A stretch of 64,000 nt of DNA from a virus: the IMG/VR virus record IMGVR_UViG_3300046532_001566, positions 32,001 through 96,000 of that record. One strand, written 5' to 3'. Numbering within the stretch: position 1 is the first letter of the stretch; every line of letters begins with the position of its first letter. The position numbers and the translations under genes are program-made. Below the pieces are notes generated by a model. That model had not been told where the DNA came from. It made no database searches and was given only the letters and a program-made list of their open reading frames with translations. Positions 4,405 to 33,107 of this stretch are shown in pieces.

Positions 4405-6267
4405 TTAAGTTATTTTTATTAAACCGTAAATACTTCCATCTTCATTGCTGTATGTTAGGTAATCAGGGAACGTATCATCTACTTCAATAAGCATATTTTC
4501 ACCGTTTATTAAGTTAGCAATAGCACGTTTCCAGGTCTTAATAAGGATAGGAGTTCCTCCTGTTAGGCTATCGTATACTGTTGAACCGTCTTCTACCCAT
4601 ATCTCTCCTGGTTCGTCTGGTAACGGACTTTGAATTAAATTACTTTTAATTAATCTACCTTCAGCATCAATTATCTTGTTTATATCATTTGGATCTGGGA
4701 TAAAATCAGGAATAAATGCCTGTGCCCATGTTAAAAAATCTTCATTACGTCCATTAGCTTCATCTAAGAACTCAGAGAATTCAAAACGAACCAGCCCATT
4801 TGACCACCTTTTAGTTATGTCTGGTACTCTATTACTGTTACTGTCTAATTTGGCTTCGTATATGAAAAATTCCTGTCCAGGCGGTAAATTATACAAAATT
4901 CTGCTTCGTACGGCTGTTAAACCGTTATCTTTATAGCCATAATTGCTAATTTCCAAACTATTGACATTTGGGTTACTTGGTGGCAAACTTATTAGGTGTG
5001 TTTTACCTCTAAAAATTTCTATTTCAGGATTTAAAGATAATGCTGGAGTTAGTACTTTGCAATCAAACTCATCAAGTACCAATGTTTCTTCTGTAACTCC
5101 GGTAACCGCCCAACCAACCCTGTTTTGAGCTGGTGCATCAATCCATAATAGATTATAACTGGTATCTGTTTGAGTTAGATCTGCATCTGTTATGTCAGGT
5201 AACCCGGCACTTTCAATATCACCTGTAATTGCTGTGGTTACTTGACCTGTAACCCTGCCACAATAATCATACACATCTTCTGTTTGACCTACAAACGGAT
5301 CATCATTATTTAAAGCATCTAATGCTAATGCATATACTTCTGGACCTAATGTCCTAGCCCATAAATTCTTGTCACTGTTAATTGGATAACTTGCACTGTT
5401 AGCAACGTTTGCAACTAACGTCTGTGCTTGCTTTGTAGCATCAGTTAGGTTTGGTGTTTTAGCAGGAGGAAAGGAGCTTGCCGCTAGTTCAAACTCTGGC
5501 CCACTAGTTGATGTTAATCCAGCAACTGCGGCAATATCTGCATCTGATGGTCTTGGACCTATTGTTATAGCAGGAGCACCAGCAACAACCGGGGCACCTG
5601 TTAATAAATTATGCTTATGTCTAAAGTCAGGAAATAATTCCTTTGCCCTTGCTTGTTTAATACTTGTAGCAATTCCACCAATCTCATTTTTAAATCCAGA
5701 AGTTAGACTTGCTGGAATTGATGTACCAGCTGATAATGCATTCTGTGATGCTTTCCTAATATTATCAAGTATACTACCTGGGTTAAAAGATCCAGTATTG
5801 ATTTTCCCACTAGCATCAATACAGATTTTAGGTTTTAGCAATGGTCCAAATGCACTTAGTACACCTTGTAAGTTGTTAAAAACATTGTCAGTAACCTGAT
5901 CTAAAATGTCTCCGTTAATATTTGGAATTTTAATAGGAACTGGACATAGTCCTCCTAAACTCAACAAATAACGTACTTCTCCTAATGCATTATTAATCCT
6001 ATCTGTAATGTCAGATACTCCAAGGTGATCGTTAAATGCTTTAACTTCATCTTGCAGTAATCTTAATTCGTCTTTAATATCATATAGATTTGCATATCCA
6101 GCATCTTCTAGCATTTCATTAATGTTTGCTTCAATGCATATCAAGTTTCCTTTTAAAAGGTTACCAAGGCCGCCAAATAGTACTGCACAAATAATATCTT
6201 TAATAGACTTATTAAGTATGCCGCCTGTTTGCACTTTAATTCCTGGTATTACTGGGATAGAAACCAT
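4405..6267 (-). CDS. Hypothetical protein, possibly virion/baseplate-tip associated
   Basis: 620-aa ORF immediately downstream of the PAAR gene; no recognised motif. Confidence 0.5.
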   Translation of the reverse strand: MVSIPVIPGIKVQTGGILNKSIKDIICAVLFGGLGNLLKGNLICIEANINEMLEDAGYANLYDIKDELRLLQDEVKAFNDHLGVSDITDRINNALGEVRYLLSLGGLCPVPIKIPNINGDILDQVTDNVFNNLQGVLSAFGPLLKPKICIDASGKINTGSFNPGSILDNIRKASQNALSAGTSIPASLTSGFKNEIGGIATSIKQARAKELFPDFRHKHNLLTGAPVVAGAPAITIGPRPSDADIAAVAGLTSTSGPEFELAASSFPPAKTPNLTDATKQAQTLVANVANSASYPINSDKNLWARTLGPEVYALALDALNNDDPFVGQTEDVYDYCGRVTGQVTTAITGDIESAGLPDITDADLTQTDTSYNLLWIDAPAQNRVGWAVTGVTEETLVLDEFDCKVLTPALSLNPEIEIFRGKTHLISLPPSNPNVNSLEISNYGYKDNGLTAVRSRILYNLPPGQEFFIYEAKLDSNSNRVPDITKRWSNGLVRFEFSEFLDEANGRNEDFLTWAQAFIPDFIPDPNDINKIIDAEGRLIKSNLIQSPLPDEPGEIWVEDGSTVYDSLTGGTPILIKTWKRAIANLINGENMLIEVDDTFPDYLTYSNEDGSIYGLIKIT

Positions 6268-11887: not shown

Positions 11888-12219
11888 ATTCCTAAATCTG
11901 CCTTTGCTGTTGATAATGCCATATCGTCAACTTTCTCTTCGTTGTCTTCTGCATCACCAGGATCACTTACCATCGTAGTTAAGATAATATCTGTGTCACT
12001 TACATCTGAAACTAAATCAGGGTTTCTATTCTTTAATGTAGTAATATAATTCCTAATTCCAGTTTCTTGCCCATTAGCCTGAAATCCTAACTTAGATAAC
12101 ATGCCAACAAGTTCTTCCATTGGTAGCGAGTCATTACCATCCAATGATGCTCTAATCAAGAACATCTTAATTGCACTAGCAAAGTCAGCATCAATCGATG
12201 TTATTTCACTCAAGTTCAC
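11884..12219 (-). CDS. Hypothetical protein
   Basis: 111-aa acidic ORF, coupled to its neighbours. Confidence 0.6.
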   Translation of the reverse strand: MNLSEITSIDADFASAIKMFLIRASLDGNDSLPMEELVGMLSKLGFQANGQETGIRNYITTLKNRNPDLVSDVSDTDIILTTMVSDPGDAEDNEEKVDDMALSTAKADLGI

Positions 12220-12847
12220 TCTTTAGTTCCCTACCAAGTGGCTCTTCTTCTGGTCCTGACATTGCAGGCGTAACTGCCTCTACGTCATCGCCTAATTCTG
12301 GTTCCATACCAGGATCTGCTACTGGAGCAGACATAGGATCTTTTAACTGACTAATTGCGGCATCAATACCATCTTTAGTTGTAGTAAGGACATCCATTGC
12401 CGATTGCAATGAAGATCTAATAGCAGTTCCGAATTGTTCACCGGCGCCATCTCCAAATTTTGATTTGATTTGATCAACTAAAGTAATTAAATCGCTTCCA
12501 AGCATATCAGCTGAATCTTCAATCATATCTTGAAATTCTTTGCTCATGCCTGTTGCCGCTATAATAATTTCTGCTTGCTCGATATCATCATCACCAAATT
12601 CAGCTTCGACAATAACCTCTGCATCTACATTAGCCATATCTTCATAGACTGCCTTATGTAAAACTGCACGAGTGTATTCTGCTCCGCCTTTACTTGCTAA
12701 AGTATCAAGTTCTTTCTGAATATCACCTAAGTGATCTCGTAATGATGAACCACTTACTGATTCTTCAATTACAATACTTTGTTTTAACAATGCTTCGCGA
12801 GCCGCTTCGGCTGGAGCAGTGTTATTTGAAATGTCATTAAACTTCAT
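12206..12847 (-). CDS. Acidic helical protein, probable prohead core/internal protein
   Basis: Start at MKFNDI after AGGAGG; IEE-S and IVE-A putative maturation sites; late motif at 12876-12881. Confidence 0.5.
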   Translation of the reverse strand: MKFNDISNNTAPAEAAREALLKQSIVIEESVSGSSLRDHLGDIQKELDTLASKGGAEYTRAVLHKAVYEDMANVDAEVIVEAEFGDDDIEQAEIIIAATGMSKEFQDMIEDSADMLGSDLITLVDQIKSKFGDGAGEQFGTAIRSSLQSAMDVLTTTKDGIDAAISQLKDPMSAPVADPGMEPELGDDVEAVTPAMSGPEEEPLGRELKSELE

Positions 12848-12900
12848 GGTAACCTCCTGGTAATTGTTTATCATTTATTTAGCCTTATAAGACTATATAA

Positions 12901-13221
12901 CTATCTTCGTTTTCTTGTTGTCTTACGCCCAATACTTGGTCTATTAGGATTACGATGACCTTTTTGCCTATTCAACCTTGCAACCCTGCGTGATACTGGA
13001 TTATAACGTTTTGTTCTCATTTGCTTGATTTTCATTCTGGCTTTGAAACGTTGTTTTGCACGTTTAAAGATATAACGTTTTTTAATATTAATGCGTTTGT
13101 TACAGGCGCCAATAGTACTGACAATACGGCCGCGGCGTTTTCCGGTAGTACAACGTATTTTGCGTTTTACCTTGTTACCAGACCTGGCCCATACTATTCG
13201 TGATTCTACTAAGACTTCCAT
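12901..13221 (-). CDS. Very basic Arg/Lys-rich protein, probable prohead core/DNA-condensing protein
   Basis: Short LVE-S leader followed by an R/K-dominated sequence; GGAGG RBS. Confidence 0.55.
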   Translation of the reverse strand: MEVLVESRIVWARSGNKVKRKIRCTTGKRRGRIVSTIGACNKRINIKKRYIFKRAKQRFKARMKIKQMRTKRYNPVSRRVARLNRQKGHRNPNRPSIGRKTTRKRR

Positions 13222-13234
13222 ATAACCTCCATTA

Positions 13235-13531
13235 CTAGTTATTAATAATTATATAACCTAGCATACCTATTAAAGCAACAATTACCGTTCCGGAAGTTGT
13301 TACCATTGTATTAAATCGTTTATTGGTGGATTGGTGGATTAAATCTTTAAGATCATTAAAATTTGAGTCTGCTTTTACTTTAAATTCAGAGAAATCTTTG
13401 TGAAGATGTTCTAGTCTGTTTTCCATACCAGTGAATTTCTCTTCTAGGCGATTATACCGACTTGCACATAATTCTACATGCAAATTAAGATCTGCCGCTT
13501 CACCTTGTACTACTTTTATCTTTTTTTCCAT
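13235..13531 (-). CDS. Small coiled-coil protein with one C-terminal TM helix (holin/XhlA-like candidate)
   Basis: Heptad-rich N-terminus and a C-terminal TVIVALIGMLGYIII helix. Confidence 0.5.
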   Translation of the reverse strand: MEKKIKVVQGEAADLNLHVELCASRYNRLEEKFTGMENRLEHLHKDFSEFKVKADSNFNDLKDLIHQSTNKRFNTMVTTSGTVIVALIGMLGYIIINN

Positions 13532-13665
13532 TATATAATATGTTCTTTACTGAGTGCGTGTGTAACGGTGACTTGCTTGCTCTTGAAGTAGTCCGCTATG
13601 TTCCGTAAAGTGCCAATATGAGCCATTATAAGTTTTTGTGAGCTATTGTTATACCAACGTATTTA
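13532..13665 (-). promoter_or_regulatory. Late promoter plus long structured 5' leader
   Basis: TAAATA at 13660-13665; about 125-nt leader with GGCUCA-like repeats and nested stems CUUUAC/GUAAAG, UAGCGG/CCGUUA and GACU/AGUC. Confidence 0.55.
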
Positions 13666-13670
13666 CCATT

Positions 13671-14099
13671 TTATAGAGATTCATGGCAGACAAAAAACAA
13701 GTTTGTGTTAACTCCTCTTGTATAAATCTTCTTACCTACTGTTGCTGTTTCTTGCAATCCAGTTAATAATTGTAATCCATGTGCTTCTTGATTTAATGTA
13801 TCTTCAGTCATTATACCCTTTTTATCAACAATCCATTTATACGCCCATACGTTATGGTTGCCTGTATGTTTACTACCAAATAATCCGTTAGTAACATCTT
13901 GATTAATAATCATTTCAACTCCAGCAAGTATAGGCTGAGAACGAGAAGAAGCAATAGCCATTATCTTCTCTAAATTTTCAGATGCACTAGTACCGTCATT
14001 ACTAATATCAAACAGCGTCCAACAAGAATAGAATTCTGGGTCTCCACCAAAGTGTGACCCAGGAATACTCCAGGAGCGTTTCTTTTCAACTGTTTCCAT
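13671..14099 (-). CDS. Hypothetical protein
   Basis: 142-aa ORF in the operon. Confidence 0.6.
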   Translation of the reverse strand: METVEKKRSWSIPGSHFGGDPEFYSCWTLFDISNDGTSASENLEKIMAIASSRSQPILAGVEMIINQDVTNGLFGSKHTGNHNVWAYKWIVDKKGIMTEDTLNQEAHGLQLLTGLQETATVGKKIYTRGVNTNLFFVCHESL

Positions 14100-19391: not shown

Positions 19392-19415
19392 CATCTGTAG
19401 GAGACATTTAATAAC

Positions 19416-19901
19416 ATGACATCAGCAACAGAAATACGTGAATTTATGGACCGATTAGCTATTATTACTGAATCTAATCCGGAGGATTCTGCTAGTAATG
19501 ATCCGCCAGCAGATGCGGTTGATAGTGAAACTGGAAAAAAAGCACATGACATTACAACAACTGAACTTAATCGCTTAAAAGTTACGTTAAGACCATTAGT
19601 AAGTGACGAATTGCAATCTAGATTTGTACAAGCATTAAATAAGATGCGAAGTAATGCTCCTATGTCTACTAGTGAAATGAAACTAATTACAGTAGCCTTT
19701 GTTGCTATGGCAGATGTTATTGCAGATGATGCGGCGTTAACTATTAGGATTAGAAACACCATTCAATCATACAACCTTTCAGCTACAGGTAATACTACTG
19801 ACGATAGTCCAAATCTAGAGTTTGACGATGGTGAGATTGAGGTTAAAGATGACGGTCCTGATGAAGAACAACTAGATCGCACCAGAGCTGAAAAAGAATA
19901 A
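19416..19901 (+). CDS. Hypothetical acidic protein, possible internal head protein
   Basis: AGGAG RBS; leader ...AIITE-S; abuts the helicase stop codon. Confidence 0.6.
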   Translation: MTSATEIREFMDRLAIITESNPEDSASNDPPADAVDSETGKKAHDITTTELNRLKVTLRPLVSDELQSRFVQALNKMRSNAPMSTSEMKLITVAFVAMADVIADDAALTIRIRNTIQSYNLSATGNTTDDSPNLEFDDGEIEVKDDGPDEEQLDRTRAEKE

Positions 19902-31977: not shown

Positions 31978-32991
31978 TTAGCTACCTGTTGTTTCTCTGT
32001 TACGAATCATACTTAAGATATCGTCAACACTAGGTTTCGGTGCGTCAGAGGATGCATCTGCAACTGGTGCCGCTTCTACTGCTACTGGTGCCGCTTCTGC
32101 TACTGGAGCAGGAGTTGCTGGAGCCGGTGCAGGTGCCGCTTCTGCTACTGGAGCAGGAGTTGCCGGAGCACTAACTGGGTTAGTAGCTGAAGTAGAATTA
32201 GCAAACGTTGCACCATTAGGGCGATAATAATTGCCCCAACGTGCTGGATCATATAATTGACCATCAACCGAAGCTTCAAACATTTCTAGTTGAATGTCAA
32301 CTTCTTCTTTGCCTGGACGTTTAGGCATAAAGTCTCCAAGATCAAACAATCCATGCTTTGAAACTGCACTTAGTTCTTCTTCGTTTAGACCACGTTCCTT
32401 ACGAGCCCAGGATGATGTACTATAATCAGCATAGCCACCTTTCTGAGTCTTATTAATACGGAAGTCTGTACCACGTTCGTAATCAGTTGGAATTTCTTCC
32501 ATTTCAACGTCCATTAACGCACTCTTAATAATTGTAAAAATCTGAGGGCTAATGATCATTCTACGAATTGGATTTTCTGGGGCATTATCTTCGTCAAGCG
32601 GGCTTGACACTACTATTCCCTGGAACACATAAGAACGCTTTTTCCAATATTTTCGTGCTAACTGCTCCATGCTAGGGTCGTTAAACCAAGGACGTAATTG
32701 TGCATGGATAGGACAAGCTTCTCCCCACATATCTACGCAAGGTACTTGCACAATACATTTACGAGATTCGTCTTGGCCTTTAATGCCTGGAAACTCGAAA
32801 CGCATCATTAAGCGTTCTCGCCAAAAGAATGTGTTAGAATCGTCGCCGTCTGGTAGAAAGCGAATTACTGCGGATGTTCCTTCTGGAATGTTCCAATGGG
32901 CAAATAGCCCGTTATCACCGGATTGTGTTGAACCGCCCGATTTTGCGGCTTGCTCGGTTAGACGAGCTCGTATTTCTGCTAAAGTTGCCAT
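31978..32991 (-). CDS. Single-stranded DNA-binding protein (T4 gp32-like)
   Basis: AVIRFLPD, CPI, YWKKRSY, G.DF...K..KGGYADYSTS.W; Ala/Pro linker and acidic tail. Confidence 0.9.
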   Translation of the reverse strand: MATLAEIRARLTEQAAKSGGSTQSGDNGLFAHWNIPEGTSAVIRFLPDGDDSNTFFWRERLMMRFEFPGIKGQDESRKCIVQVPCVDMWGEACPIHAQLRPWFNDPSMEQLARKYWKKRSYVFQGIVVSSPLDEDNAPENPIRRMIISPQIFTIIKSALMDVEMEEIPTDYERGTDFRINKTQKGGYADYSTSSWARKERGLNEEELSAVSKHGLFDLGDFMPKRPGKEEVDIQLEMFEASVDGQLYDPARWGNYYRPNGATFANSTSATNPVSAPATPAPVAEAAPAPAPATPAPVAEAAPVAVEAAPVADASSDAPKPSVDDILSMIRNRETTGS

Positions 32992-33107
32992 AATTAGTTA
33001 TCTCCTGTATATTATGAGCCAATATTTGTTTCAGTTCTTCTGAGCCAAACAACGTAAACCTTCCCGGCCTACATTGTAATTATACTTATCTTTGAGACTA
33101 AAGTCAA
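32992..33107 (-). promoter_or_regulatory. SSB promoter (sigma70 plus overlapping late motif) and structured leader
   Basis: TTGACT-N17-TATAAT (33079-33107) with TAAGTA overlapping; leader carries two hairpins and two UUGGCUCA copies (33015-33022, 33041-33048). Confidence 0.7.

Follow-up and report, generated by a model that had tools for sequence, protein, structure and literature searches.

A conserved leader RNA of a late membrane-protein gene in giant T4-like phages, and short words that recur in the gp32 mRNA leader and beside an orphan ncRNA

The membrane-protein gene and its surroundings

The window, the whole stretch of 64,000 nucleotides that we analysed, is part of a 116-kb virus record from IMG/VR (G000; 36% G+C, approximately 35% complete by CheckV), and the virus is an uncultured giant T4-like phage. 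Early promoters in its genome are sigma70-like and late boxes read TAAATA, a hexamer found 10–30 nt 5' of many other genes in addition to the one described here. Searches of a phage GenBank collection with DNA and protein returned no relatives; relatives were drawn from IMG/VR, with G001, G002, G006, G007, G008, G011, and G019 denoting relative genomes and L-numbers denoting relative loci. Before the start of the window, ARAGORN located a tmRNA (G000:C1:29798-30144 (-), asterisk flag, tag ANDNFASEDFALAA) and three tRNAs, Gly-UCC, Arg-UCU, and Thr-UGU (G000 1904-1978, 5546-5622, and 19399-19474, respectively), while no tRNA-Met was found in the 116-kb source record.

The gene under study occupies positions 13235-13531 (-) of the window, with its AUG at 13529-13531, and encodes a 98-residue tail-anchored coiled-coil membrane protein for which we found homologues on 75 viral contigs at 83–44% identity. 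A preliminary description of this DNA had called the gene holin-like with a single transmembrane (TM) segment. The single TM is indeed present, following an N-terminal coiled coil and placed at the extreme C-terminus, but the holin label is tentative: the match to phrog_689 (holin) is weak (E 0.0049, i.e. about 0.005) and is surpassed by matches to families of unknown function, the window protein scores 14.9 bits against the Pfam XhlA profile PF10779 (curated cut-off 34.7), and no gene around it matches a lysin or spanin family. XhlA proteins, which accompany holins in Bacillus prophages, consist of a coiled coil and a C-terminal TM, a topology identical to that of our protein. Seven of eight members of the 98-residue family give weak XhlA matches (best E 3.4e-4, below the cut-off), and in the Atlas the neighbours of the protein are of unknown function, with one neighbour cluster partly XhlA (0.91). 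The protein is at most a tentative holin candidate.

Further downstream, the gene at 12206-12874 has a match to a family of virion structural proteins. The gene directly 3' of the 98-residue gene (12901-13221 (-)) has a strong GGAGG Shine-Dalgarno (SD) sequence, is probably carried on the same late transcript, and encodes a very Arg/Lys-rich product of 106 residues that may be a packaged DNA-binding protein.

A conserved leader with words, a hairpin, and an A/U-rich start

Between the stop codon of the upstream gene (13671-13673) and the 98-residue gene lies a non-coding gap of 139 nt (13532-13670 (-)). A T4-type TAAATA late-promoter-like box occupies 13660-13665 (-), just 3' of the upstream stop and 128 nt before the ATG, leaving a leader, or 5' UTR, at 13532-13659 (-) with no SD, all of which agrees with the preliminary description. 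We collected approximately 50 distinct upstream regions of homologues and aligned 44 of these leaders with MAFFT (alignment A2). A common layout emerged in approximately 50 distinct relatives: the stop of the same upstream gene, TAAATA (invariant in 51 of 52 distinct relatives), short words, a hairpin of variable sequence, a spacer of 15–25 nt, and the ATG, with a weak or absent SD. Since this layout is conserved in relatives down to 44% protein identity, we conclude from the comparison of sequences that the leader is a real conserved element and that it founds an undescribed family.

The run of related motifs that had been noticed in the 5' half of the leader resolves into three words on the (-) strand of the class RRCWMA, a degenerate class of 16 hexamers. 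Word 1, AGCUCA (13639-13644), aligns with a nearly invariant AACTCA of the relatives, where its core reads ACUCA; word 2, GGCUCA (13619-13624), is nearly invariant and lies, with few exceptions among the relatives, 34–40 nt 3' of TAAATA (35 nt in the window); and word 3, GGCAC (13610-13614), is represented in many lineages by GGCAC or ACUCA located 10–12 nt 3' of word 2. In relatives, (A/G)ACUCA occurs 24–30 nt 3' of TAAATA with GGCUC(A/C) 10 nt further, such that ACUCA-N4-GGCUCA recurs in a 10–11-nt phase. The window has word 1 10 nt further upstream because of a 10-nt insertion, yet the phase is kept (20 nt). The same insertion (within 13625-13652 (-)) creates a perfect TATAAT just 5' of GGCUCA, with a poor -35 (ATAACA) and a 16-nt spacer; it is not found in relatives and is probably fortuitous, but could be the source of a second, shorter transcript. 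A 31-codon upstream ORF (13531-13626 (-)) was judged not to be a gene, its ATG occurring in the window only (AATGG versus CCTGG, CTAGG, and TTTGG in relatives) and its frame closing after 13 codons in L001.

A covariance model of the leader derived from the alignment, R1, finds one copy per genome, always 5' of a homologue of the 98-residue gene (31.9 bits in the window, 60.8 in G001, and 75.9 in G011), and also recovers one relative from outside the seed, L158. The L158 leader (L158:1363-1488 (+), 25.4 bits) is a variant with three ACUCA words at an 11-nt phase (ACTCAactttgACTCAactttaACTCA) and no TAAATA. Rfam 15, searched with positions 13300-13900, yielded as its best matches snoRNA noise (E 0.26–8.4), all far below gathering scores. 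The most distant homologues, G006 and G007 (L102 and L101), have leaders of approximately 80 nt without RRCWMA words and instead carry AGCUCUUA / AGCUCUAUAA.

The 3' half of the window leader contains a hairpin domain (13545-13610 (-)), drawn from the consensus fold of the five closest sequences. Its outer stem, CUUUAC/GUAAAG, pairs 13605-13610 with 13545-13550, and its inner stem, GACU/AGUC, pairs 13590-13593 with 13570-13573; in the window lineage the conserved hairpin, which aligns with that of all relatives, sits atop these two stems. Of the nested stem proposed at the outset, both of these parts exist and recur in the four closest relatives, without sequence variation, whereas the third, TAGCGG/CCGTTA, is specific to the window. 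The apical loop AAGA(G) lies at 13580-13585, and an NNGA loop closed by a C-G pair is nearly invariant in the family. For a covariation test the hairpin was specified by hand: on the MAFFT alignment 75% of cells were paired, compared with 61% in shuffled alignments and 30–47% with slid partners, the covariation score was 0.395 versus 0.213, all ten pairs showed changes on both sides, and none of 500 shuffles was as good. RNAalifold returned no consensus structure from the 44-sequence alignment, and the fold of the window leader (MFE -14 kcal/mol, z = +1.09) is no more stable than that of shuffled copies. The conservation in relatives and the covariation of the hairpin uphold the initial view of the leader as a structured late 5' UTR lacking an SD.

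Downstream of the hairpin domain the start region reads AACAUAUUAUAUA-AUG-GAAAAAAAG; it is A/U-rich, and the AUG is predicted to be 81% unpaired in the window. Many relatives have, 10–20 nt into the leader, a segment complementary to the region of the start codon; its sequence differs by lineage, as in CCGUAAUCA/UGAUUACGG in L127-L140 and UCCGUUCC/GGGAACGGA in L144. Matched 5' arms and start regions pair at -6.5 kcal/mol versus -5.1 kcal/mol for mismatched ones (permutation p = 0.0002), and helices of 8–10 bp with different sequences can form in L127, L131, L144, and L154, while the pairing is weak in the window. In the predicted ensemble, accessibility of the AUG was 0.43 with the native 5' arm and 0.44 with a shuffled one (p = 0.92), which does not support sequestration of the start codon; its hiding is thus a lineage-dependent possibility that finds no support in the window. 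The word region showed no covariation with the start region (p = 0.16) and is predicted to be no more single-stranded than other parts of the leader.

Several other candidate elements were considered and dropped. A hammerhead core (CUGAUGAG) occurs only in L111, and neither a sigma54-like reading of TGGCTCA-N4-TGGCA, nor a MotA-box or middle-promoter reading, nor a pseudoknot pairing GAG in the loop with CUC in the words is conserved. Two further apparent likenesses, of GGCUCAUAA to the initiator-tRNA anticodon loop and of UGGCUCAG to the 16S rRNA 5' end, fit the window lineage only and carry no weight.

The same words in the gp32 leader and beside an orphan ncRNA

The gene for the single-stranded DNA-binding protein (SSB) gp32 (31978-32991 (-)) is located at a distance of 19 kb and was confirmed by a match to Pfam PF08804 (E 3.5e-7, above the cut-off); its relatives show 54–91% identity. 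It is preceded by a promoter and leader at 32992-33107 (-), in which TTGACT (33102-33107) and TATAAT (33079-33084) are separated by 17 nt and followed by a leader of approximately 80 nt. The preliminary description had linked the two leaders through a 9-mer, TGGCTCATA, of which the window has just two copies (13617-13625 and 33013-33021), each on the (-) strand; the gp32 leader thus holds GGCUCA at 33015-33020 and, as also stated, a second copy at 33041-33046. Within the window alone, the motif hardly exceeds chance. The pair of 9-mers is at chance level (0.68 copies expected, at least two in 20 of 100 shuffles), as is the overall number of GGCTCA hexamers in the window (16 observed, 16.6 expected), but all three intergenic GGCTCA copies of the 116-kb record sit in the leaders of the 98-residue gene and of gp32, in the sense orientation.

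We extended the comparison to gp32 leaders from approximately 40 distinct relatives and ten further genomes with both genes. Every gp32 leader taken carries words of the RRCWMA class, with one word located 4–10 nt 5' of the SD. The window lineage has GGCUCA at this spot, most others have GGCUAA, and a third lineage (L180, L182, and L186) has ACUCA-N6-ACUCA. At the upstream position of the gp32 leader, GGCUCA (L185) and ACUCA (L179) interchange. Because the gp32 variants ACUCA and GGCUCA coincide with the two words in the leader of the 98-residue gene, the sharing of words belongs to the clade, not to a single 9-mer. The leader of the 98-residue gene keeps ACUCA/GGCUCA whichever variant gp32 has; G008 carries GGCACA in both leaders, and in G006 and G007 the leader of the homologue lacks words, yet the gp32 leader has GGCUAA. 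The idea of a motif common to both leaders therefore stands at the level of a word family present across many relatives, but its variants do not strictly co-vary.

Clade gp32 leaders (window 32992-33075 (-), L021-L100, and L179-L186) open with a 5' hairpin, ACACAUGC.../...GCAUGUGU in nearer relatives. They are also predicted to form a second, nested hairpin, whose 5' arm holds the first word (CUCA/UGAG changing to CCCA/UGGG in G011 and G019), and to leave a single-stranded word just 5' of the SD. In more distant relatives the gp32 mRNA starts with GGCUAACAAAGGCAAA.

The absence of the motif from other intergenic regions, as first reported, is true within the window, but the same genome has words on both sides of an ncRNA outside it. 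This ncRNA is of the Polynucleobacter-1 type (RF01718), lies at G000:C1:~106080-106580 (-), approximately 10 kb past the window end, with its Rfam part corresponding to L018:1250-1396, and scores 95.8 bits in G000, 88.3 in G011, 91.6 in G001, and 85.9 in G002, all above the gathering score (37 bits). Upstream of this ncRNA is the record's third copy of TGGCTCATA, and the ncRNA flanks hold ACUCA-c-AGCUCA on the 5' side and ACUCA-ucc-AGCUCA plus GGCUAA on the 3' side. In G011, four word units precede the ncRNA, one of them in the same CGGCUAUAACUCACCUGGCUCA context as in the 98-residue gene leader, and the flanks in G001 and G002 carry words similarly. As an intergenic arrangement, the compact tandem ACUCA-N3-5-GGCUCA was found only in the leader of the 98-residue gene and beside the ncRNA, at which the R1 model gave no match. 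The G000 ncRNA has a long uncatalogued 3' part, in the tail of which the 8-mer AAGUGUGG occurs twice.

A scan for words within 40 nt of all gene starts gave no clear further targets, many GGCTAA copies representing GGC joined to TAAATA promoters. A gene-free gap of 467 nt in G001 (G001:C1:229018-229484 (+)) contains TAAATA and two GGCTCA 45 nt apart and may be a further word site or another ncRNA. Since the words also flank the orphan ncRNA, the network would be wider than the SSB leader and the 98-residue gene. By the sequence comparisons presented here, the link between these two leaders is real at the level of the word family and extends to the ncRNA.

Possible readers of the words and comparison with known systems

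The layout brings together a T4-type late box, two to three RRCWMA words at a fixed promoter distance, a covarying NNGA-loop hairpin, and an SD-poor, A/U-rich start. The interpretation that we favour, tentatively and at slightly less than an even chance, is that the gap encodes the 5' leader of a late mRNA, a gene-specific conserved cis-regulatory RNA that would control expression of the 98-residue protein after transcription has started. The words might serve as the landing site of a trans-acting reader, which may likewise recognize the SD-proximal words in the gp32 mRNA leader and those flanking the ncRNA, such that expression of the membrane protein would be tied to the post-transcriptional circuit of the SSB. 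A single reader is suggested by the fact that the same words adjoin the gp32 SD, sit in the late leader, and cluster beside the ncRNA; candidates would be gp32, another RNA-binding protein of phage or host, or a nuclease. The profile of one phage regulator, RegA (PF01818), gave no match in four records, and control genomes were equally silent. In many relatives the 5'-proximal segment could, by pairing with the start region, prevent translation until the leader has been remodelled; where this pairing is weak, as in the window, control would more likely act on the open A/U-rich start region beside the hairpin domain, as in the T4 gene 32 operator.

Because the gp32 proteins of T4 and RB69 repress their own mRNAs, acting through leader targets that have diverged between the two phages (PMC535899), gp32 is the obvious candidate reader. 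Free gp32 would then bind the leader itself and set translation of the membrane protein according to the state of replication. This version of the leader hypothesis fits the sharing of words with the gp32 leaders of many relatives, where they adjoin the SD, the succession of a structured domain and an unstructured A/U-rich start in the window leader, and the divergence of gp32 RNA targets between phages. The protein binds single strands with a site of approximately 7 nt, however, as opposed to a word phase of 10–11 nt, and the words also flank an ncRNA, while the two leaders lack strict co-variation. By analogy with T4, we consider gp32 a plausible but rather unlikely reader.

A spacing of 10–11 nt (20 nt in the window) fits a DNA-binding protein as well, and the all-sense orientation of the words does not settle between a DNA and an RNA reading, because all genes concerned are on one strand. 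In a second explanation, attenuation or antitermination, the hairpin would be an intrinsic terminator after the late promoter and the phased words, as DNA or RNA, would load a read-through factor. A U-run follows the hairpin in half of the relatives (at least five T in 8 nt in 22 of 44 leaders, at least four in 32 of 44), which makes attenuation a serious rival there, and a terminator scan flagged the L151 hairpin as terminator-like. The fixed distance of the words from the promoter and their helical phase (10–11 or 20 nt) point the same way, as does AGCUCUUA in place of the word in the most distant homologues, presumably a likeness of the lambda boxA core. The window lineage, by contrast, has no U-run or terminator-like site (0 T in the tail), the hairpins are moderately stable (median -7.2 kcal/mol), the words of the gp32 leader sit beside an SD with no terminator there, and no antiterminator gene was identified. 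Overall we regard attenuation as unlikely.

A third explanation treats the words as sites of endoribonuclease cleavage, by which the ncRNA would be trimmed at both ends and the two mRNA leaders processed. It would account for words both 5' and 3' of the ncRNA in G000 (ACTCA-c-AGCTCA and ACTCA-tcc-AGCTCA) and for the several words upstream of it in G011, and there is precedent in the T4 gene 32 mRNA, which is cut in its leader by RNase E. RNase E prefers A/U-rich sites, though, which the words do not match; no nuclease has been assigned, and a fixed phase of tandem words is unexpected for cleavage sites, making processing an improbable account. Still more improbable is a separate small RNA gene of approximately 95 nt, running from the late promoter to the end of the hairpin and acting in trans, for example as a word-carrying decoy: about half of the relatives do have a promoter and a terminator-like hairpin, but the window lineage has no terminator, no separate promoter serves the downstream gene, and the element is always directly 5' of the 98-residue gene. 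Finally, a chance 9-mer in a gap that codes for a missed 31-residue product, coupled through TAATG to the gene whose start codon its ORF overlaps by one base, agrees with the chance level of the 9-mer pair and the unexceptional stability of the fold but is largely refuted by the lack of conservation of the ATG and frame and by the retention of words, hairpin, and layout in dozens of relatives.

Returning to the regulatory leader that we favour, its broadest form would be a circuit of the Csr kind, in which one reader, possibly gp32, recognizes RRCWMA words on the gp32 mRNA, the leader of the 98-residue gene, and the ncRNA ends, with the ncRNA as sponge or scaffold, and in which the state of replication times a late membrane protein, perhaps a lysis accessory. 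We offer this circuit as a conjecture that is distinctly unlikely to hold in full; if true, an orphan ncRNA family would gain a function. Independently of the circuit, the leader constitutes a new gene-specific RNA family that is widespread among uncultured giant T4-like phages of freshwater and marine origin, and one short word links three RNAs of one phage, namely the mRNA for the SSB, that for a late membrane protein, and an ncRNA of an orphan Rfam family. Binding of all three by a single reader would amount to a rare RNA-level phage regulon, would offer the first testable lead on what Polynucleobacter-1-type RNAs do and, with gp32 as the reader, would extend gp32-type autoregulation beyond gene 32.

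Among known systems, the gene 32 operator of T4 and RB69 (PMC535899) resembles our leader in that a structured element is followed by an unstructured A/U-rich start region and in its repeated short words, and the words recur adjacent to the SD in the gp32 leaders of this same clade. Unlike that operator, the element described here precedes a late membrane-protein gene, with the gp32 gene 19 kb distant, no pseudoknot is shown, and the words are G/C-containing RRCWMA in a 10–11-nt phase instead of A/U runs. Csr/Rsm-type circuits employ short words in mRNA leaders, one of them at the SD, and a sponge ncRNA with many copies. A short word in leaders (SD-proximal in gp32) that is repeated on a separate conserved ncRNA recalls such circuits, but by analogy only: the word is not GGA, no CsrA-like protein was identified, and the words flank the ncRNA and do not occupy loops.

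A start region hidden in RNA structure controls translation in the Com/mom system of phage Mu and in the T4 late genes e, soc, and 49. The 5' segment of many of our relatives can likewise pair with the start region, with covarying sequence, yet this helix is long-range (approximately 90 nt apart) and weak in the window, and predicted accessibility does not support sequestration. In phage lambda, pR'-tR' and Q provide late antitermination ahead of the lysis genes, and the likeness comprises a late promoter, a leader of approximately 100 nt, a terminator-like hairpin (in half of the relatives), and a small membrane-protein gene; the differences are that the late promoter is of the T4 type, that no Q-like gene was identified, and that the window lineage lacks a U-run. 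The Polynucleobacter-1 RNA motif (Rfam RF01718; PMC2864571) has a member in the same genome (95.8 bits) with the leader's words on both its sides, but the leader of the 98-residue gene is not itself a member, having no Rfam match, just as R1 finds none at the ncRNA. A regulatory 5' leader or operator is thus a known kind of element, whereas this leader family and the network of words at three sites are new.
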